Source: Malacoraja senta (Eukaryota). From it: a stretch of DNA of 64,000 bases. Below the pieces are notes generated by a model. The model ran no database searches. It saw only the letters and a program-made list of their open reading frames with translations, and was not told the origin of the DNA. The position numbers and the translations under genes were made by a program. Every line of letters starts with the position of its first letter. The first letter of the stretch is position 1. The stretch is from NCBI GenBank assembly GCA_038087875.1, contig CM075989.1:1922001-1986000 (forward strand), given 5' to 3'. Shown piece by piece: positions 581 to 54,030 of this stretch.

Positions 581-3485
581 TCGATGAGTTGAACGCCGTA
601 ATAAGGTCGATGAGTTGAACGTTGCAGATAGCAATTAATGATTATGATATAGTTGGGATCACGGAGACATGGCTCCAGGGTGACCAAGGCTGGGAGCTGA
701 ACATCCAGGGATATTCAATATTCAGGATGGATAGAGAGAAAGGAAAAGGAGGTGGGGTAGCATTGCTGGTTAGAGAGGAGATTAACGCAGTGGAAAGGAA
801 GGACATTAGCTTGGAGGATGTGGAATCGGTATGGGTAGAGCTACGAAACACTAAGGGGCAGAAAACGCTGGTGGGTGTTGTGTACAGGCCACCTAGCAGT
901 AGTCGTGAAGTTGGGGATGGCATCAAACAGGAAATTAGAAATGCGTGCAACAAAGGGCAAAACAGTTATAATGGGTGACTTCAATCTACATATAGATTGG
1001 GTGAATCAAATTGGCAGGGGTGCTGAGGAAGAGGATTTCTTGGAATGTATGAGGGATAGGTTATCTAAACCAACATGTAGAGGAACCAACGAGAGAGCAG
1101 GCTATTCTAGACTGGGTATTGAGTAATGAGGAAGGGTTAGTTAGCAGACTTGTTGTGCGTGCCCCCTTGGGCAAGAGTGACCATAATATGGTTGAGTTCT
1201 TCATTAGGATGGAGAGTGACATTGTTAATTCAGAAACAACGGTTCTGAACTTAAAGAAAGGTAACTTTGAGCGTATGAGACGTGAATTGGCCAAGATTGA
1301 CTGGCAATTAGTTCTAAAAGGGTTGACGGTGGATATGCAATGGAAGGCATTTAAAGACTGCATGGATGAACTACAAAAATTGTTCATCCCAGTTTTGGCA
1401 AAAGAATAAATTCAGGGAAGGTAGTGCATCCGTGGATAACAAGGGAAATCAGGGATAGTATTCAAAGCAAAAGATGATGCGTACAAATTAGCCAGAAAAA
1501 GCAGCATACCAGAGGACTGGGAGAAATTCAGAGACCAGCAGAGGAGGACAAAGGGCTTAATTAGGAACGGGAAAATAGATTATGAAAGGAAACTGGCAGG
1601 GAACATAAAGACTGACTGCAAAAGGTTTTTATAGATATGTGAAGAGAAAGAGATTAGTTAAAACAAATGTAGGTCCCTTGCAGTCAGAAAAACAGGTGAA
1701 TTGATCATGGGGAACAAGGATATGGCGGACCAATTGAATAACTACTTTGGTTCCGTCTTCACTAAGGAAGACATAAATAATCTGCCGGAAATAGCAGGGG
1801 GCCGCGGGTCAAAGGAGATGGAGGAACTGAGTGAAATCCAGGTTAGTCGGGAAGTGGTGTTGGGTAAATTGAATGGATTAAAGGCCGATAAATCACCAGG
1901 GCCAGATAGGCTGCATCCCAGAGTACTTAAGGAAGTAGCTCCAGAAATAGTGGATGCATTAGTGATAATTTTTCAAAACTCTTTAGATTCTGGAGTAGTT
2001 CCTGAGGATTGGAGGGTAGCAAACGTAACCCCACTTTTTAAGAAGGGAGGGAGAGAGAAAACAGGGAATTACAGACCAGTTAGTCTAACATCGGTAGTAG
2101 GGAAACTGCTAGAGTCAGTTATTAAAGATGGGATAGCAGCACATTTGGAAAGTGGTGAAATCATTGGACAAAGTCAGCATGGATTTACGAAAGGTAAATC
2201 GTGTCTGAAGAATCTTATAGAATTTTTCGAGGATGTAACTAGTAGAGTGGATAGGGGAGAACCAGTGGATGTGTTGTATCTGGATTTTCAGAAGGCTTTC
2301 AACAAGGTACCACATAAGAGATTAGGATACAAACTTAAATCACACGGTATTGGGGGTTCAGTATTGATGTGGATAGAGAACTGGCTGGCAAACAGGAAGC
2401 AAAGAGTAGGAGTAAACGGGTCCTTTTCACAATGGCAGGCAGTGACTAGTGGGGTACCGCAAGGCTCAGTGCTGGGACCCCAGCTATTTACAATTTATAT
2501 TAATGATCTGGACGAGGGAATTAAAAGCAACATCTCCAAGTTTGCGGATGACACTAAGCTGGGGGGCAGTGTTAGCTGTGAGGAGGATGCTAGGAGACTG
2601 CAAGGTGACTTGGATAGGCTGGGTGAGTGGGCAAATGTTTGGCAGATGCAGTATAATGTGGATAAATGTGAGGTTATCCACTTTGGTGGCAAAAACGGGA
2701 AGGCAGACTATTATCTAAATGGTGGCCGATTAGGAAATGGGGAGATGCAGCGAGACCTGGGTGTCATGGTACACCAGTCATTGAAAGTAGGCATGCAGGT
2801 GCAGCAGGCAGTGAAGAAAGCGAATGGTATGTTGGCCTTCATAGCAAGAGGATTTGAGTATAGGAGCAGGGAGGTTCTACTGCAGTTGTACAGGGTCTTG
2901 GTGAGACCACACCTGGAGTATTGCGCACAGTTTTGGTCTCCAAATCTGAGGAAGGACATTATAGCCATAGAGGGAGTGCAGAGAAGGTTCACCAGACTGA
3001 TTCCTGGGATGTCAGGACTTTCATATGAAGAAAGACTGGATAGACTTGGCTTATACTCGCTAGAATTTAGGAGATTGAGAGGGGATCTTATAGAAACTTA
3101 CAAAATTCTTATGGGGTTGGACAGGCTAGATGCAGGAAGATTGTTCCCGATGTTGGGGAAGTCCAGGACAAGGGGTCACAGCTTAAGGATAAGGGGGAAA
3201 TCCTTTAAGACCGAGATGAGGAAAAACTTTTTCACACAGAAAGTGGTGAATCTCTGGAACTCTCTGCCACAGAGGGTAGTTGAGGCCAGTTCATTGGCTA
3301 TATTTAAGAGGGAGTTAGATGTGGCCCTTGTGGCTAAAGGGATCAGGGGGTATGGAGAGAAGGCAGGTACGGGATACTGAGTTGGATGATCAGCCATGAT
3401 CATATTGAATGGCGGTGCAGGCTCGAAGGGCCGAATGGCCTACTCCTGCACCTATTTTCTATGTATCTATCTATGTATCTATGTA
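581..3485 (+). mobile_element. Young CR1-clade LINE (HER1-like) with near-complete ORF2 (APE endonuclease + RT)
   Basis: Endonuclease motifs GITETW, MGDFN, SDHN. RT motifs KSPGPD, NYRPVSL, LDFQKAF, GVPQGSVLGP, FADD. (TATG/TATC)n tail. TSD tctgagg at 574-580 and 3486-3492. Several frameshifts upstream of 1700. Confidence 0.95.
1701..3380 (+). CDS. CR1 ORF2 reverse transcriptase, uninterrupted C-terminal 559 aa
   Basis: ORF track. RT motifs intact through to the natural stop (...EKAGTGY*). Confidence 0.85.
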   Translation: MIMGNKDMADQLNNYFGSVFTKEDINNLPEIAGGRGSKEMEELSEIQVSREVVLGKLNGLKADKSPGPDRLHPRVLKEVAPEIVDALVIIFQNSLDSGVVPEDWRVANVTPLFKKGGREKTGNYRPVSLTSVVGKLLESVIKDGIAAHLESGEIIGQSQHGFTKGKSCLKNLIEFFEDVTSRVDRGEPVDVLYLDFQKAFNKVPHKRLGYKLKSHGIGGSVLMWIENWLANRKQRVGVNGSFSQWQAVTSGVPQGSVLGPQLFTIYINDLDEGIKSNISKFADDTKLGGSVSCEEDARRLQGDLDRLGEWANVWQMQYNVDKCEVIHFGGKNGKADYYLNGGRLGNGEMQRDLGVMVHQSLKVGMQVQQAVKKANGMLAFIARGFEYRSREVLLQLYRVLVRPHLEYCAQFWSPNLRKDIIAIEGVQRRFTRLIPGMSGLSYEERLDRLGLYSLEFRRLRGDLIETYKILMGLDRLDAGRLFPMLGKSRTRGHSLRIRGKSFKTEMRKNFFTQKVVNLWNSLPQRVVEASSLAIFKRELDVALVAKGIRGYGEKAGTGY

Positions 3486-4306: not shown

Positions 4307-4634
4307 ATTCCTTCTTTCCAGTGATGATGCCTGCTCCGCTGAGTTTGGAGTAGTTTTGGAGGGATATTGACTGAGTGCGGGCAGCTGGGACTGGTGTAGA
4401 TGGGACATGTTGGCTGTTTTGGGCAAGCTGGGCCGAAGGGCCTGTTTCCACACTGTATCACTCTGTCTCTATGATGCTAAATCAGAGCAGGACCTAAACG
4501 GTGAATGGCAGGAGTCCGTGGAGTGTTGTAGAGCAGAGTGATCTAGGAGAGGTAGTGCATAGTGCCGTCACGTCCTCCCTGAATGCTTGTGCTGTGAAAT
4601 CTGGTTTACACTGTAAAGCCAGTAAAAAGAAGAG

Positions 4635-6663
4635 GTTCAGGGATAGTATCAAAGCAAAAGATGATGCATACAAATTAGCCAGAAAAAGCAGCATACCAGA
4701 GGACTGGGAGAAATTCAGAGACCAGCAGAGGAGGACAAAGGGCTTAATTAGGAAAGGGAAAATAGATTATGAAAGAAAACTGGCAGGGAACATAAAAACT
4801 GACTGCAAAAGTTTTTATAGATATGTGAAGAGAAAGAGATTAGTTAAAACAAATGTAGGTCCCTTGCAGTCAGAAACAGGTGAATTGATCATGGGGAACA
4901 AGGATATGGCGGACCAATTGAATAACTACTTTGGTTCCGTCTTCACTAAGGAAGACATAAATAATCTGCCGGAAATAGCAGGGGATCACGGGTCAAAGGA
5001 GATGGAGGAACTGAGTGAAATCCAGGTTAGTCGGGAAGTGGTGTTCGGTAAATTGAATAGATTAAAGGCCGATAAATCACCAGGGCCAGATAGGCTGCAT
5101 CCCAGAGTACTTAAGGAAGTAGCTCCAGAAATAGTGGATGAATTAGGGATAATTTTTCAAAACTCTTTAGATTCTGGAGTAGTTCCTGAGGATTGGAGGG
5201 TAGCAAACGTAACCCCACTTTTTAAGAAGGGAGAGAGAGAGAAAACGGGGAATTACAGACCAGTTAGTCTAACATCGGTAGTGGGGAAACTGCTAGAGTC
5301 AGTTATTAAAGATGGGATAGCAGCACATTTGGAAAGTGGTGAAATCATTGGACAAAGTCAGCATGGATTTACGAAAGGTAAATCATGTCTGACGAATCTT
5401 ATAGAATTTTTTGAGGATGTAACTAGTAGAGTGGATAGGGGAGAACCAGTGGATGTGTTGTATCTGGACTTTCAGAAGGCTTTCGACAAGGTCCCACATA
5501 AGAGATTAGGATACAAACTTAAAGCACACGGTATTGGGGGTTCAGTATTGATGTGGATAGAGAACTGGCTGGCAAACAGGAAGCAAAGAGTAGGAGTAAA
5601 CGGGTCCTTTTCACAATGGCAGGCAGTGACTAGTGGGGTACCGCAAGGCTCAGTGCTGGGACCCCAGCTATTTACAATTTATATTAAAGATCTGGATGAG
5701 GGAATTGAAGGCAACATCTCCAAGTTTGCAGATGACACTAAGCTGGGGGGCAGTGTTAGCTGTGAGGAGGATGCTAGGAGACTGCAAGGTGACTTGGATA
5801 GGCTGGGTGAGTGGGCAAATGTTTGGCAGAAGCAGTATAATGTGGATAAATGTGAGGTTATCCACTTTGGTGGCAAAAACAGGAAAGCAGACTATTATCT
5901 AAATGGTGGCCGATTAGGAAAAGGGGAGATGCAGCGAGACCTGGGTGTCATGGTACACCAGTCATTGAAAGTAGGCATGCAGGTGCAGCAGGCAGTGAAG
6001 AAAGCAAATGGTATGTTAGCTTTCATAGCAAAAGGATTTGAGTATAGGAGCAGGGAGGTTCTACTGCAGTTGTACAGGGTCTTTGTGAGAGCACACCTGG
6101 AGTATTGCGTACAGTTTTGGTCTCCAAATCTGAGGAAGGACATTATAGCCATAGAGGGAGTGCAGAGAAGGTTCACCAGACTGATTCCTGGGATGTCAGG
6201 ACTTTCATATGAAGAAAGACTGGATAGACTTGGCTTATACTCGCTAGAATTTAGGAGATTGAGAGGGGATCTTATAGAAACGTACAAAATTCTTATGGGG
6301 TTGGACAGGCTAGATGCAGGAAGATTGTTCCCGATGTTGGGGAAGTCCAGGACAAGGGGTCACAGCTTAAGGATAAGGGGGAAATCCTTTAAGACCGAGA
6401 GAGAAAAAACTTTTTCACACAGAGAGTGGTGAATCTCTGGAACTCTCTGCCACAGAGGGTAGTTGAGGCCAGTTCATTGGCTATATTTAAGAGGGAGTTA
6501 GATGTGGCCCTTGTGGCTAAAGGGATCAGGGGGTATGGAGAGAAGGCAGGTACGGGATACTGAGTTGGATGATCAGCCATGATCATATTGAATGGCGGTG
6601 CAGGCTCGAAGGGCCGAATGGTCTACTCCTGCACCTATTTTCTATGTATCTATGTATCTATGT
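4635..6663 (+). mobile_element. Second, 5'-truncated copy of the same young CR1 family
   Basis: Near-identical to 1449-3485. RT open to ~6398, where a 1-nt deletion shifts the frame. Same 3' UTR and tail. Confidence 0.95.
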
Positions 6664-11400: not shown

Positions 11401-11689
11401 TCTGGAGAAAATGGATAGATGATGTCTCGGGTCGGGACACTTCTTCAGACTTCAGTGGGGGTTGGGGGAGGGAGTGGGGAAGGGGGGAAGCAGGAATAGA
11501 GAACAAAATTAGGACAAATGGGAGTCAGCAAACGGTGAGCACAGGCAAGGAGGTTCCATGATAGACCAATTGTTGGCATGAGAAAGGTGTGAGCCCAAGA
11601 GAGATACATAGTTGTCAACTGTGGAACAGGTTAACTGACTCTTGGTGGAAGAAGGGGAGGGGGGGGGAATTGAGAGGGGAGAGGGGAGG

Positions 11690-22110: not shown

Positions 22111-22823
22111 CGGGGGCGGAAAACCCAGGGGGGCCAGAGGGGACACGTCCCCTCCATGTTTTGAGAGGTGGGGGGACATCCCCCCCAAGTTTTTGTAATC
22201 CGGATTTTAAAATCCGGTGATCGAGGGCGGCGATTGGAGGAGAGAGACGTCGGTCAGCAGGCAATGGGGGCGGGACATGATTCAGCACGATGATTGGTGG
22301 AGGGAGGAGTGGGGGGTGGGACTGAGGATAGAGCGCGGTGATTGGAGGAGGGAGACGTGGCATAGACCTGCGCTTCATCCGCAGGCAGGATCGATCCCGG
22401 CCGGGTGTCCGGAGCTGTCCCGTCTCCACCCGTGTGCCCCTCCTGGTGTCCACCCGTGGTGGCCAGAGAGGTCGGCAGCAAAGATCCTCTGCTATAGGAT
22501 CTTTGGTCGGCAGTCAGACGGGCCAGCGCAGAGAAACAGCGCTAAACCCAGCTAACTCTGCCTGTCCCGCCAGGTGAGCTTACAACCCTTCCTGGACGCG
22601 GGAAATATGGCCAGTGCGGAGAAGCAGCGCTGGTATCCCGTCAGCCCAGACAGGGCTGTAGTTAACCCGGTGAAGACAGGCAGTTGAGCTGCATTTAGCG
22701 CTGGATTGACCCTCCGAAGCCTCGCGCGCGTGTGTGTGTGTGTGAGTGGGCGCATGCGCGCGTGGCTGCCAAAAAATTGTGTCCCCCGTCCCCTCCATGT
22801 TTTGATAGCGAGTTCCGCTCTTG
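22111..22823. mobile_element. Non-autonomous hAT-type DNA transposon inserted in an HE1 SINE
   Basis: Imperfect TIRs CGGGGGCGGAA / TTCCGCTCTTG. Imperfect 8-bp TSD ctcacagg / cttacagc. The SINE is contiguous across the insert (22071-23095). Confidence 0.75.
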
Positions 22824-43430: not shown

Positions 43431-43630
43431 NNNNNNNNNNNNNNNNNNNNNNNNNNNNNNNNNNNNNNNNNNNNNNNNNNNNNNNNNNNNNNNNNNNNNN
43501 NNNNNNNNNNNNNNNNNNNNNNNNNNNNNNNNNNNNNNNNNNNNNNNNNNNNNNNNNNNNNNNNNNNNNNNNNNNNNNNNNNNNNNNNNNNNNNNNNNNN
43601 NNNNNNNNNNNNNNNNNNNNNNNNNNNNNN
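43431..43630. other. Assembly gap (200 N)
   Basis: Run of N. Confidence 1.
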
Positions 43631-46684: not shown

Positions 46685-47511
46685 GTCATTTGGACCCCGT
46701 TGAGGTCCAAACAAAATGTCGTTTCTGCAGCCATACAATACAAAACGAAGAAGACCCGAGACACAACACAATTTACACATACATCCATCACAGCGCTTTG
46801 ATGGAAGGCAAAAAAACGTATCTCTCCACTGCACTCCCCCCCCCCCCCCCCGATGTCAGAGTCAAAGTCAAAGCCCCCGGCGGGCGATGGTGATTATCCC
46901 ACGGCCATTAAAGCCACGCCGGGTAATGCAAGGTCGCGCACCGGGTCTTGGTGTTAGAGCCCCGGCGCGCGCTCGCAAATTTCCGACGGCCATTCCAAGC
47001 CGCGCGGGGCGACGATGTAAAGCCCCGCTCCAGGTGCTCTTCAACCCCGCAACTCGGGCGGGAGAAGTCGCCGCTGCGGAAGCCCCGAAAAGCGGTCTCC
47101 CACCAGGGGACCCGCGGGCTTCCGGTGTTGCCGTCCGCCAGACCCGCGGCTGCAGCCTCCGAAACTCCGGGGGTCGGGTAGCAGCAGCGATTGTCTCCAC
47201 CACAGCTCCACCCGCTCCGGACTCGGCCAGCCCCGCGACGGTGAGTAGTCCGCAGCTCCGCAACTGGAGCCCCAGGTCGTTCCTGCTGGAGGCCGCTCCA
47301 CGTTGCCCAGCCCCAACGACAACGGAGACCCGACAAAGAAAAGTTCGGGTCTCCCGTGCAGGGGAAAGATTTTAAAGTTCCCCCACCCCCACCCCCCCAC
47401 ACACATACCCCGACAAAAAAAAACAAAAAAAACTACATAAAAACGAGACAAAAATAATAAAAAGACAGACAGGCTGCAGAGGCCGCTGCAAACGAGAATC
47501 GCGCCGCCCAC
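46685..47511 (-). mobile_element. GC/CpG-rich non-coding retroposon, copy 2
   Basis: Same 5' start (GTGGGCGGC) as copy 1. Lacks the terminal AATAAA tail. Confidence 0.75.
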
Positions 47512-47519
47512 TAAACTAA

Positions 47520-50500
47520 ATGTTCCGAAGGTTGAGGAGGGCCAGGTAAAAGTCAGAATAGGACAGCCTACAATGTTCCAGCAAGTCCTTAGCACTGCAG
47601 AGCCGTTGCTTTGTGGGTACTCTGGGCTGCTGGTATAGTGTCGGAAGTTCCAGCCGGCAGCGAAACGCCGAAATTCGGCACTCGAGAACTTGCTGCCGTT
47701 GTCCGATTGAAGACTTGCCAGGGTTCCGAAGGTTCCGAAGTGTTGGCGCAGCTTCCCGATAATGGCTGAAGAGGTGAGGGAGTGCAGCCGGTCAACCTCG
47801 AACCAGCTGGAGTACGAGTCCACAAGAACCAGGAAGTGCTTGCCACGCCACTCAAAAATGTCACCGGCGACAGTCATCCAGGGCAGCTCGGGGGCAGGCT
47901 GCTGCAGAAGCGGCTGCCGTTGCTGATGGGGAGTGAGGCTATTGCAGACAGAGCAAGCGGAGACCCTCTCCCGGATGTCTTGGGCCATGCTGGGCCAGTA
48001 GAACAAACTCTGGACTTGGGATAGGGTGGCCTCGGCCCCAGGATGACCGCGATGGGCGGTATGAAAGTATTGGTCACGCAGGGCAGCAGGCATGATGACC
48101 TTGTGTCCCTTCACGACCACGCCGTCGTGCAGCACAAGTTCGTCACGGACCAGGAAGTAGGGCACGACTCCAGGCGGCAAGGATGAACGACGGTCTGGCC
48201 AGCCCTGCCTGATGACGTTGGCAAGCTGCTGCAGGGCAGGGTCCTTGGCAGTGTTGCTGACCAGGGACTGCATGTGCTGGGAAGGCACAATGTTGACGTT
48301 AAGCACCATCAGGCCGGACGATCCATATGGATGACGATCGGTGGACGTTAGTGGTGCGCGGGACAGCGTGTCGGCCACAAACATGTCCTTGCCCTTGCGA
48401 TATACAATTTTGAACGTAAAACGCTGGAGCTGCAGCATCATGCGCTGCAAACGGGACGAGGCAACGTGGATCGGCTTGTTGAGGATAGAGACCAGCGGCT
48501 GATGGTCGGTCTCGATCGTGAAGCTGTATCCCAGAATATAATCCTTGAACTTGGAGCAGGCAAACACCACAGCAAGCAGCTCCTTCTCTATCTGAGCATA
48601 GCGCTGCTCGGCAGGGGTCATGGTGCGGGAAGCGTAGGAAACAGGCAGCTGCAGGCCATCGCGGAGCTGCAGGCAAGCAGCACCAAGACCGAACTTGGAG
48701 GCGTCGCAGGTAAGAACAATGGGACGCTGCAGATCGAAGAATTGGAGAGTGGGGGCATTGGCCAGCCTGGACTTCAGAATGTCGAAAGCTTTCTGGAGAT
48801 GTGGGAGCCAGGCCCAGGCAGTGTCCTTCTTGATCACCTCCCTCAGGGGCGCACTCAGCTCGCTGAGGTCAGGGATGAACTTCCCCAGGTAATTAACCAT
48901 GCCCAGGAAACGCTGCAGGCTGGGCACGTCGGTGGGCGAAGACATCCCGGAGACCGCGGTTGTCTTCTGCGGGTCAGGCTTCAGCCCCGATGCGGTAAAG
49001 ACGTGGCCCACATAGGTGACGTCCAGGACGCGGAAACGGCACTTTTTTGGATTTAGTTTGAGGTTGATTTCACGGGCCTGGTCCAGGACTTGACGGAGGT
49101 GGAGATCGTGCTCAGCAACGTCCTTACCGTAGACCAGGATGTCGTCAACGATGATAGCACATGGCAGACCGGTGAACAGCTGCTCCATCGTCCGCTGGAA
49201 GACCTCGCTGGCAGAGTTGATCCCGAATGGCATGCGGAGGAATCGGAACCTGCCGAAGGGCGTGCTGAAGGTAGTCAGGTAGGAGGACCGCTCGTCCAGT
49301 GGTATCTGCCAGAAGGAGCTCTTGGCATCGAGAACCGAAAAGACAGTGGCCGGGCCAACCTGTGCAGCGACGTCCTCCACTGTTCGCATGGGGTAATGTG
49401 GGCGTCTGATGGCAAGATTCAGGTCTTTGGGGTTGATGCAAATGCGAATTTCACTTTTGTCCTTTTTCGCAGCAACAACCATGGTGGAGACCCACCGGGT
49501 GGGTTCGCTCACCTCCTTCAGGATGCCCATGGTAACCATGTTGAGCAGCGTTAACTCCACCTTGTCCTTCATGGCGAAGGAGACGCGGTGTGGTGGACCG
49601 ATCATAGGTTCAACACCGGGGTCGACAACGATCTTGTAGCTGCAGGGCAGCTTGCCCAGCTTGTCATCAAAACGGTCAGGGTATTCGCGCAGGGGGTCCA
49701 TAAGGGTCTGCACCTGGTGGATATCACGGTGGAAAGAGACCAAGCCGAGGTCCTGGCATGCCCGGGCGCCCAACAGGGTGATGTTGTTTGTATCCAGTAG
49801 ATAAAAAGTGAGGGGCCGAGAGGCACGCAGTACCTTGCAGTGCAGGGTAACCCTCCCCACCGGAACAGGCACGCTTCCCCCGTAGGCATGCAACAGGGAG
49901 TGATCGGGAGTAACTTTCGCATCAGTCCTTATCTTCTTGAAGAGGCCTATTGACATTACATTGGTCACGGCCCCCGTGTCGAGTTTGGCGTTGAAGGTCG
50001 AACCGTTGACAGTGACGCGAACCGAAGGGTCCGTTATCAGTGCAGGTGCATCCAACACTGAAAATATGCTGGTCTCCCCCTGGGAGGAACTTGTATCAGA
50101 CAAAGGGAGTTCATCAGGCTGGAACTGTGAACCAAGCGCGCTATCAGCTCGAGCAAGGTTGTTTAACATTCGGCATGGAGCAGAAACTGGCTTCCCACGA
50201 GAGCGACAGGCTGCAGAGAAATGGTTCAATTTCCTGCAAAAATTGCACGTTTTCCCCAGCGCAGGGCACACATTAGACTGATGGGAGGTAAAGTTGCAGT
50301 TGGGGCACCGCTGTGAGCTGCTACCCCCGGGTGCAGGGGACTCCCGTTGCCGTTGCGGGCCAGCGTTCCGCCGGCGGCCAGGAACACTGGCAAAGTTAAT
50401 GTCATGATCAGCAGACGACACCGCCGAGGCGACAGCCTCAGCCATGCGGGAGGCGTGCAGAGCATCGGCTAAAGACAGGTCGTGCTTCCGCAGAAGTTCA

Positions 50501-50982
50501 GCCCTTAGTTTTTCATCTTGAAGACCATACACTAAAATGTCCCGGGTCAGTTGATCGGGGGTCAGCGTGTCCAGGCTGCAACGCCTGGCCAGGTGACGCA
50601 ACGCGGCGATATAGTTATCGATTGACTCTCCAGAGATCTGACGCCGGGTGAACATTTTAAAACGCTCTAGAATGCAGTTAGTGGGGATGTCGCACATTGC
50701 GGTAAACTTAGCCATAAGACATACCGGGTCCTGAGCATCTTCACCTGCACCATAGACAAACGACTCAGCCCGTCCCAGGGCATCAGGACCAGCCAGGTTG
50801 AGAAACAGAGAAGCCCGTGTAGCAGGGGTGGCAGCAGGATGGGCGATCGTGGCATAGTGTTGAAAGTCACGTCTAAAGACACCCCACCGATGGGCAATGT
50901 CCGAGTCGAAGACAAGCATGTCGGGTTTGCGGCAAGAAGTAGCCATGGCACGGGAGATTAAGAAATGGGGAAACGGGTCCAA
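47520..50982 (-). pseudogene. Ty3/Gypsy gag-pol polyprotein, single ORF; integrase frameshifted and truncated
   Basis: Two CCHC knuckles (CPNCNFTSHQSNVC, CNFCRKLNHFSAAC), protease LDTGA, RT (LDAKSSFWQI, MPFGI, IVDD), RNase H (CDAS, EKE, TDH, ADTLSR), integrase HHCC plus D..SDNG..YPQSNG. Domain order PR-RT-RH-IN. Confidence 0.95.
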
Positions 50983-51024
50983 AGTAAAGAAAAAACGATA
51001 AACTGGAGGCGCAAAGGTACGAAG

Positions 51025-51033
51025 CTGACACCA
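51025..51033 (-). promoter_or_regulatory. Primer binding site, tRNA-Leu-like
   Basis: TGGTGTCAG directly after the LTR CA, complementary to the ...CUGACACCA 3' end of tRNA-Leu(CAA/CAG). Only 9 nt match. Confidence 0.7.
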
Positions 51034-51238
51034 TGTAAAGAGGCGTCATAACACACTGTGTCTTTACTACTGTTTATTTATGATACACATACTTTACTGC
51101 CCTAGCTGTTCGTGGTCTGTCACCGGAACCAGAGAGAGAGAGCACTGGGTGGGAAGGTTGTAATTATACTAGTGATGTGGGGAGTGGTTAGTAGTGGTGA
51201 GGTCACTATGTTAAAGGTACATGCACATGTCATCTACA
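51034..51238 (-). mobile_element. 5' LTR of the Gypsy element (205 bp)
   Basis: TGTAGA...TTTACA termini. TATAAT (~51163-51168) and AATAAA (51073-51078) on the minus strand. Immediately followed by the PBS and abuts a broken HE1 SINE. Confidence 0.85.
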
Positions 51239-51808: not shown

Positions 51809-53714
51809 AAACTAGGCAGTAGAATGCCATGTATAAGGAGACACTGAACTGTGGGTGTCTCTTGATAACAAAAGCAGTCATTAGAGACTGTGAATAATGT
51901 TATAAACTCATTGAGGAGCCATGAGAGAGAGAGCTGACCTTGGAATGAACTAAGGTGAAGTGGGATGTGCAGCCGCTGCCAGTTCTTATCACACACAGTC
52001 ACAATGCAGCGTTTAACATCACTCACCCTTTCCCATTACAGGGCATTGATGCTTTTATCTCAAAATGTCACATCATAACAGGCTGATTCACATTTTGCCA
52101 AAACCCTCATCGTGAGAAATTTGCAATTGACATAATCGACAAAAACAAAATAAACCGCTCGTCTGAATAAGTGAGAAATGATACATCATTCTAACCAGGG
52201 TCAAAACTGCCCCCAACCACCAACAAACCTGCCCCGACCCCAGGCACCTGCGCCCACACCAAACAGATTTTAAATTAGGAATATGTGACATGTCGGGTCA
52301 AGACTCTTCTTCAGACTGAGGGTCTCAGCCCTCACCTATTCACTTTCTCCAGAGCTGCTGCCTAACCTGTTGAGTTATTCTCACATTTTGTGTCTGTCTT
52401 CGGTGTAAACCAGCACCTGCAGTTCTTTCCTACATAGTATTTTAGTTTAGTTTAAATCAGAGATGAACATGAGAAAAGGCCCTTCAGCCCACTGAGTCCA
52501 AGCCGACCATCGATCACCGTTCACACTAGTTCCATGTTATCCCACGTTCTCATCCACTCCCCACACACTAGGGACAAATTACAGATAGCCAATTAAACTA
52601 CAAGGCCAGGATGTGGGAGGAAACCAGAGCACCCGGAGGAAAGCCACGTGGTCACAGTCAGAGCGTGCAAACTACACAGAGAAAGCGCCTGTGGTCAGGA
52701 TCGACCCCGGGTCTCTGGTGCTGTGAGGCAGCAACACTGCCAGTGCCACCAGGTTTCTCCATCCTTTGGACAACCTCCAACGCAGCCCATGCCACACAAT
52801 TCACACAACGTCCTGCAACACCAACAAACATTACAAGCAGTCTAAAGAAGGGTCTCGACCTGAAACATCACCCACTCCTTCTCTCCAGAGATGCTGCCTG
52901 TCCCGCTGAGTTACTCCAGCTTTTTGTGTCTATCTCCCATTTAAACCACCATCTGCAGTTCTTTCCTACATATGATAAGGGAATAACCTTTAGTGCAAGA
53001 TAGAGTCAGCAAAGTCCGATCAAGGACAGCTGAGGGTCACCAATGAGGTAGATAGTAGTTCAGGACCGCTCTCTGTGTCACTCTTCACTGACATTACTCT
53101 CCACTGACACTAATGTTGTTCTGGCCCCAGGGACAAGTCCCTCCATCATCCATACCTTCCCTGTCCCACTTCCAGTTGCCAGTACCTCTACATCGCTGCC
53201 AAAGCTGTCTCAGGAGCTTTGAACATAACTCTTGATGTGAGGCATACATCCTCCCTTAATGCCTGGATTTGAATTTCAAAGCAAAGACTGCATTATGGGC
53301 TCTGTAATGAGCTGTACACAGTAATGCACTCGGCAGATGTGAGTGTTTGTTTTCTGTTGGCTGACATTTTAGAGCCGTTTGTTGGGCAAAATGGGATGTG
53401 GGCGCGATGCCCATGTTTATGAAAGTGGGGACTGCATTTAGAAGTCGCCAGCTGATCAGGTTTTGTACTGTTCATTGCTGAATAATGATTGCCCTGGATA
53501 TTGGTCGTCTTCAGCGAGTACAATGGGAGCCTTTGAACCTAAATACAACCGTGGAAACCAAAGATCCTAGAGCTCCGCTATAGGATCTTTGGTGGAAACC
53601 TGCAGCACAAAAGCTGGCAATTTACCCTAAGCAGAACTAATGAAGCTGCTCTCAATCCCAGCCCCTACCTCCATTATCCGTTCATGCGGTGACATGACTT
53701 TCCTCAAACATCTT

Positions 53715-54030
53715 TTAGTGTTAGTTTAGTTTCGAGATACAGTGCGGAAACAGGCCCCTTGGCCCACCGAGTCGGCGCCGACCAGCGATCCCCGCACACT
53801 AGTACTATCCGACACACACTAGCCACAATTCATAATTCTACCAAAGCCAATTAACCAACAAACCTGTACGTCTTTAGAGAGCGGTAGGAAACCGGAGAAC
53901 CCGGAGAAAACCCACGCAGGTCACGGGGAGAACGTACACACTCTGTACAGACAGCACCCATGGTCAGGATCGAACCCAGGTCTCTGGTGCTGAAGGGCAG
54001 CAACTCAACCGCTGTGCCACCGTGCCGCCC
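53715..54030 (-). mobile_element. HE1-type V-SINE
   Basis: A/B boxes, V-domain and tail. Confidence 0.85.

Follow-up and report, generated by a model that had tools for sequence, protein, structure and literature searches.

What process left a 33-bp palindrome between two copies of an 8-bp sequence at positions 53551-53599 of the window (the whole 64,000-nucleotide stretch of Malacoraja senta DNA that was analysed here)? A sequence-only reading had proposed the scar of germline excision of a P/THAP9-type transposon, made with the chemistry of the fly enzyme. We found that the P parent, the target site duplications (TSDs) and the spectrum of junctions fit end-joined excision, while the proposed 17+16 split, the ceiling on scar length and the fixed 17-nt stagger were not supported. 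The insert at 53559-53591 is, thus, very probably an end-joined excision scar of an elasmobranch family of P transposons, a footprint of the fly kind that exceeds the 17-nt limit. Its parts are the following, the TSD copies being read directly from the sequence.

53551..53558, + strand: left TSD copy, 8 bp, GTGGAAAC
53559..53573, + strand: transposon end A, outermost 15 nt, with one difference from the commonest end
53572..53591, - strand: transposon end B, outermost 20 nt, identical to the end of elements L076 and L142
53592..53599, + strand: right TSD copy, 8 bp, GTGGAAAC

The insert (33 bp, CAAAGATCCTAGAGCTCCGCTATAGGATCTTTG) is palindromic and its TSD perfect, as had been described; the two arms are complementary over 15 bp but for a single mismatch, and the 11 bp at the termini pair perfectly. 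An inverted-repeat scan gives 17 nt at 94% for the same structure, because two TSD bases pair as well. Comparison with the parent ends replaces the 17+16 split by 15 nt plus 20 nt overlapping by the GC common to both arms (15+20-2; 2-nt microhomology at 53572-53573). The 15-nt arm carries G at position 12, where the commonest end has T, a spelling that is present in sister end types too, and the 20-nt arm halts right ahead of an inner AAGAT motif. The surroundings look unique, as claimed: the flanks at 53080-53715 behave like single-copy DNA in four sequencing runs aligned to the locus, and repeats lie further out, at 52824-53079, adjoining the single-copy flank, and as two copies of one interspersed repeat, one on either side (near 52500-52740 and near 53780-54000). 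The 33-bp scar is an inert relic, in which we saw nothing to suggest a function.

Elsewhere in the window, the pol of an LTR retrotransposon lies at 47041-51045 (- strand), as a 1334-aa frame free of stops that includes aspartyl protease, reverse transcriptase, RNase H and integrase domains. Reverse transcriptase frames of LINE type are found at 1662-3380 (572 aa) and 4498-6432 (644 aa), both on the + strand; the closest named relatives of the latter are from skate (86%), bamboo shark (76%) and stingray (70-75%), with birds and turtles at 40-56%, which supports a host among the elasmobranchs. Positions 43431-43630 are a run of 200 N.

The window contains a second scar of the same family, absent from the earlier reading, whose arms are joined on a 2-nt microhomology at 22487-22488.

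22471..22478, + strand: left TSD of the second scar, GTCGGCAG, read from the sequence
22479..22505, no strand assigned: insert of the second scar, 27 bp, a 10-nt arm plus a 19-nt arm by comparison with the parent ends
22506..22513, + strand: right TSD of the second scar, GTCGGCAG, read from the sequence

Structures in which 8-bp direct repeats enclose an insert of 22-80 bp with perfect inverted ends of at least 10 bp numbered two in a scan of the 64-kb window, against none in each of 30 first-order Markov resamples. Genome-wide, a search with these termini, as the sequence-only reading had suggested, gave 680 exact matches to two 11-bp ends within 20 bases in 1.94 Gb, and none to a reversed-pattern control. 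Many of these short head-to-head matches are passive copies within other repeats: the first 50 sites listed among the 680 (28 of them 22-mers) come down to 17 events after grouping by flanks, and passive copying accounts for the high counts of 22-, 28- and 38-mers.

Scars are also found inside other mobile DNA. P elements with long frames (L079, L081-L085, L087, L089-L092) each contain two or three scars of related P ends, in 36-, 37- and 36-46-bp forms passively copied with the element, and in L252 and L258 scars are nested in MITE ends. A single host repeat (L129, L137, L166, L169, L204, L238, L239) bears five different scars within a few hundred bases, with some copies empty at some sites, so that its lineages could order the events. 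One high-copy short repeat was hit independently at a preferred site: a full MITE and two distinct scars (L018, L131 and L135) occupy almost the same point of it, and their TSDs differ. At L141:4841-4904, a 28-bp scar plus TSD is in tandem duplication.

The reading had called for a P-superfamily parent, and such elements are present in this genome: long elements with the same ends carry 8-bp TSDs and encode THAP, Tnp_P_element, RNase H and GTP-binding domains. The 20-nt end pattern had 1042 matches, and 30 loci cut out from them were mostly ends of a 387-415-bp MITE or of a 1.1-kb element, with 8-bp TSDs. Long elements with these ends and 8-bp TSDs, in 22 listed entries at 20 distinct loci, span 175-8100 bp and include internally deleted derivatives of many sizes, from 175 bp to 4.9 kb. 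Their terminal inverted repeats pair over about 25 bp. The ends read CAAAG, which fits the CANRG terminus that the sequence-only reading had given for P-superfamily elements. The 8-bp TSDs on L142, L082 and L277 are within the 7-8 bp given for P families in the cited part of PMC3698922.

The 4.9-kb element L076 has perfect 24-bp repeats and a THAP exon at its start, and the exon-1 cysteines are present in it and its relatives. L076 and L077, in which the ends stand head to head 4913 bp apart, were considered as the autonomous parent and rejected, because their long frames belong to a LINE reverse transcriptase nested within them; the THAP exon 1 at their end nevertheless provided a route to coding P copies. 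The two 4913-bp copies, 95 kb from each other, have common flanks and a single base difference, and may be a recent segmental duplication or an assembly duplicate. A search with the L076 end gave 40 scored matches, and in tblastn 10 of 14 extended stretches matched P transposase, every one with breaks. L142 (5642 bp) is complete in outline, with both ends and the TSD CTGACATC, and its transposase is broken; four of its five stop-free pieces have domain matches (THAP, Tnp_P_element, TNP-like_RNaseH_N and TNP-like_GBD), positions L142:855-1169 matching PF05485 (THAP) with an E value of 1.1e-10 and other pieces PF12017, PF21787 and PF21788, while the fifth gave no domain match.

The transposase was broken in all examined copies with exactly these ends. 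Stop-free frames, 769-790 aa long, occur in a sister group whose ends are related to these. One of its members, L082 (7597 bp, TSD CTATTCAG), has a stop-free frame of 790 aa that matches the fly P transposase 6p5a with an E value of 1.8e-43 and all four P-transposase domain families, PF21789 included. The residues D230, D303, E531 and D528 are all aligned (catalytic numbering of the fly enzyme from the cited part of PMC7776569), and, as judged from sequence, a GTP-binding domain is present with part of its residues. L082 is 72-75% identical to L142 over the two longest pieces. Among the coding pieces between the ends of this family, all domain matches were to P families and none to hAT. The ends are thus of P ancestry.

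Matches to P transposase abound, chiefly on small contigs; of 300 candidates, 150 were scored. Some 20 coding P copies (the L103-L123 set) have one left flank in common, head to head with another P-type end, which indicates that they multiplied as part of a larger unit. Named database relatives of the P transposases here are only 35-42% identical, and unnamed ones up to 80%.

To analyse the junctions, we sorted 168 raw hits at the fetched loci into 71 flank groups. Thirteen groups were excluded, of which 7 had other or mixed end types, 4 were complex and 2 were secondary copies; one group was split, which left 59 independent sites. The sample is not random, since the search patterns set a minimum of 11 or 17 nt for the arms, or of 35 bp for the whole; this biases the lower range of arm lengths and leaves the upper edge unbiased.

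The TSD was perfect at 38 of these 59 sites and within one mismatch at 50. Empty paralogous sites carry a single 8-mer (L208 compared with the window near 11468, L214 with about 9402 and L163 with about 37291), confirming that these are true duplications. The TSD consensus at scars, (G/C)T....A(C/G), matches that of the long elements and resembles the fly core GTCCGGAC, so that the predicted GT....AC-like bias is indeed there. It is not diagnostic of P, since targets of the hAT elements Hermes and hobo are likewise GT....AC in the cited part of PMC2577343. The fly 14-bp target motif with flanks resembling the repeat ends was absent from the 59 sites.

Thirty-eight of the 59 junctions show microhomology, 5 are blunt and 16 contain insertions, several of them copied from neighbouring repeat sequence, and the scars fall into 18 length classes. 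The recurrent lengths are those of predicted joints: 22 bp is 14+14-6, 28 bp is 15+15-2, 32 or 33 bp is 19 or 20 plus 15-2, and 36 or 37 bp is 19 plus 19 or 20, minus 2. Scars also mutate later by slippage (33-, 38-, 27-, 29- and 34-bp variants occur at single inherited sites), so some lengths are secondary. The 36-bp forms at L190:301-336, L128, L189 and L218 are palindromic without a mismatch, and in one of them the two arms share a rare variant base; they may stem from fold-back synthesis, from conversion of one arm by the other or from a parent whose ends were equal.

We propose the following course of events. A P-superfamily element would have inserted at the locus and duplicated GTGGAAAC, duplication being observed for the family at its empty paralogues, and P transposase would later have excised it in the germline. 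By analogy with the fly, one strand would be cut at the element end and the other within the inverted repeat, leaving the outer repeat as a 3′ overhang; unlike in the fly, the inner cut would fall just before a conserved A(A)AGAT motif. The overhangs would then have annealed on GC, one at its tip (20 nt) and the other internally (15 nt), and trimming of the flap and filling of the gaps would yield 20+15-2 = 33 bp between intact TSDs, as the arithmetic bears out. The repair would be microhomology-mediated end joining, probably by polymerase theta, as the templated insertions at other scars suggest.

Could the same letters have arisen with no transposase at all? A full MITE might form a hairpin, from which slippage or a structure nuclease deletes the middle and joins the remainder at short repeats. 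A slip between GC dinucleotides would indeed yield the same letters, and secondary slippage within scars is observed. The templated insertions and one-sided losses, however, point to broken ends. Pairing of the repeats extends over about 25 bp, yet none of the joints possible within its inner 5-7 bp is used, some of which have longer microhomology; we consider such a collapse highly improbable.

The recurrence of identical forms raises a different possibility, namely that the 22-38-bp palindromes are mobile units of minimal size, descended from a handful of master copies by transposition in trans. Identical 32-, 33-, 36- and 37-mers and a 25-mer do occur at unrelated sites with fresh TSDs, no full allele was seen at a scar site, and three 36-mers and one variant are perfect palindromes. 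The recurrent forms, however, exactly match the microhomology joints predicted from the parent ends, a separate set of short forms belongs to each parent end type, and the abundance of 22-, 28- and 38-mers is due to passive copying. Nor is length uniform, with 18 classes and insertions at 16 of 59 junctions. Moreover, the arms stop at least 5 nt short of the ~25-bp repeat, and the short forms lack its inner half, which the fly helix-turn-helix (HTH) binds. Mobility of the short forms themselves is, thus, very unlikely, and end-joined excision remains our reading of them.

How far into the repeat does the second cut reach? A ceiling of 32-34 bp on scar length had been predicted, its absence having been named in advance as a refutation, and it fails, as 120 genome matches are 35-62 bp long and scars of 36 and 37 bp recur. 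There is, instead, a different and sharp ceiling on the arms. The longest arm at the 59 sites was 14 nt in 6 cases, 15 nt in 4, 17 nt in 6, 18 nt in 5, 19 nt in 18, 20 nt in 17, 21 nt in 1 and 23 nt in 2, that is, at least 18 nt at 43 sites, at most 17 nt at 16 and 21-23 nt at 3; a 49-mer scar keeps an arm beyond 23 nt. In Tables 1-2 of PMC5466332, arms left by the fly P{wa} element never exceed 17 nt, whereas here 40 of the 59 independent sites keep an arm of 18-20 nt, and the idea of the same chemistry with a fixed 17-nt stagger is not supported.

In the whole genome, arms halt at AGC, with a next base other than A, in 209 matches (not de-duplicated, and with palindromic ones counted twice). 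Arms reaching AGCA account for 15 matches, 7 of them variants of one passively copied scar, and arms of AGCAA or longer for 14 (the full list), of which about half are nested or partial long elements. Ten microhomology joints with a 22-27-nt arm were available, two of them 4 nt long, and none occurred among these 14 longer-arm matches. Since most scars join at GC, microhomology alone could sharpen the apparent edge.

Other end types have other limits. The asymmetric element L277 (1025 bp) has the inner motif after 21 nt at one end and after 17 nt at the other, and its first end had 52 matches, 14 long elements and 38 short. Left arms of this type were 18 nt (12), 19 nt (11), 20 nt (4), 21 nt (10) and 22 nt (1, with flank microhomology), as counted by eye without de-duplication, at least four rows sharing a flank. 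The right arm was 17 nt in 10 clear rows and never longer; among these rows are an insertion junction and five 34-mers, each in different surroundings, whose arms overlap by 1 nt at the joint. Scars ending at 21 nt without a GC-GC join are found at L262, L263, L264, L267 and L268. An end type with the motif after 18 nt leaves 18-nt arms, all examples being GC joins, and the two ends of the MITE give limits of 19 and 20 nt. A fixed 20-nt stagger, suggested by the recurrent 25-mer, was dropped, as the parent of that family is L277 with its two unequal ends, and a fixed 21-22-nt stagger is disfavoured by the 17-nt right arms.

From these ceilings, we consider it somewhat more likely than not that the second strand is cut just before A(A)AGAT, within about 1 nt, giving an overhang of 17-21 nt that is set by the end type and may differ between the two ends of one element. 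Such a cut fits the strand-transfer structure of the fly enzyme, in which the HTH is bound to the inner half of the repeat while nucleotides -14 to -18 lack order (cited part of PMC7776569); this disordered stretch is where the end types here differ in length. Fly repeat positions 17-23, adjoining the fly cut, read AAGGTGG in the cited part of PMC11368186. The inner motif of L076 and L142, AAGATGG, agrees with it at 6 of 7 bases, which is too short for homology and serves as a lead only.

The ceiling might, alternatively, mark a block to synthesis and not the position of the cut. The stagger would then be short or fixed (at most 17 nt), and the longer arms would come from aborted homology-directed gap repair: a broken end invades the sister copy, copies a few bases, halts at the protein-bound inner motif, is released and end-joined. 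The scar would still be a product of P excision. Such repair would explain the internally deleted derivatives of 175 bp to 4.9 kb and the few scars that extend past the motif, and a fly donor break can be repaired by either route (cited part of PMC7776569). It would, however, have to halt at the same motif in five end types, while lengths from the motif to about 50 nt are almost empty (14 matches against 209), and the CG-joined 30-mer (16+16), the natural product of 17-nt overhangs here, occurs at none of the 59 sites. We therefore regard aborted repair as unlikely, and a cut placed by the motif as the better account of the arms.

We also compared alleles. At one passively amplified scar site, none of 83 copies held a long element, and among the fetched loci there was no full element sharing flanks with a scar by descent; the only long end and scar in a shared context there were independent hits in one high-copy repeat. 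The orthologous locus was followed in four of 24 listed sequencing runs (X19, X1, X11, X17) aligned to it, none of which showed an empty ortholog. X19 has the same insert without differences. In X1 and X11, relatives about 4% apart, contigs span the site, retaining 655 of 666 bases in X1 and 656 of 671 in X11, a loss too small for an empty site (41 fewer bases), so the site is not empty there and may hold the same scar or a shorter one. In the more distant X17, the contig leaves the alignment at 53556 and cover of equal depth resumes near 53667, a gap that could be a flanking deletion or unrelated.

In three runs, scar-like contigs pile up at 53560-53591, with a summed depth of 4450-46245 against 21-45 in the flanks. 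In X17, the most distant organism, this depth is 5.5, which hints weakly at a spread of the family after the lineages had parted.

Taking the sequence data together, we lean towards a broader picture, in which an elasmobranch P group places its second cut by a motif, makes overhangs of 17-21 nt, even unequal ones, has left hundreds of germline scars, and retains between intact ends stop-free transposases that are perhaps active. If the motif-anchored cut is true, the 17-nt stagger would be one setting of a motif-anchored mechanism. Natural end types with limits from 17 to 21 nt predict directly where the nicks fall and provide ready substrates, and the genome that contains them also encodes a stop-free transposase. 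The scars would also be a record of past P mobility in a vertebrate germline outside zebrafish and of germline repair of long 3′ overhangs, and they constitute a class of relics that, at 20-50 bp, fall below the sizes covered by usual repeat annotation. Most subscription papers lay outside our literature search, within which we found no report of such vertebrate scars, none of P elements in sharks or rays, and no stagger other than 17 nt.

Footprints of hAT and Tc1/mariner elements are not known to keep more than a little of the terminal repeat, if any. Fly P footprints, as described in the cited part of PMC5466332, resemble the present scars in that both TSD copies are intact and the outer parts of the repeat stand head to head, and the P{wa} end-joining junctions of Drosophila melanogaster (Tables 1-2 of that paper) fall into the same classes of microhomology, blunt joints and templated insertions. 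The fly footprints are laboratory events, whereas those described here are fixed germline relics in a vertebrate genome. Members of this family of 175-415 bp are ordinary P-associated MITEs; like the P-associated BuT5 (cited part of PMC3698922), they are non-coding, bounded by terminal inverted repeats and flanked by TSDs. The 22-50-bp forms differ from MITEs in their heterogeneity, in having neither the inner repeat nor subterminal DNA, and in their agreement with repair joints. Zebrafish Pdre2/zfTHAP9 (cited part of bioRxiv 2024.03.22.586318) is likewise a vertebrate P-like transposon with an 8-bp TSD and internally deleted copies. It has 13-bp repeats of other sequence and about 50 copies, and shows flanking deletions after excision in cell lines, that part of the preprint giving no stagger length. 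With the known P superfamily (fly transposase, PDB 6p5a/6pe2; THAP, PF12017, PF21787-PF21789), the elements described here share the set and order of domains, the catalytic residues as aligned in the sister element L082, and an 8-bp TSD with a GT....AC-like bias; they differ in their repeats of about 25 bp, in a spacer of variable length at positions 14-21 and in the presence of several end types in one genome.
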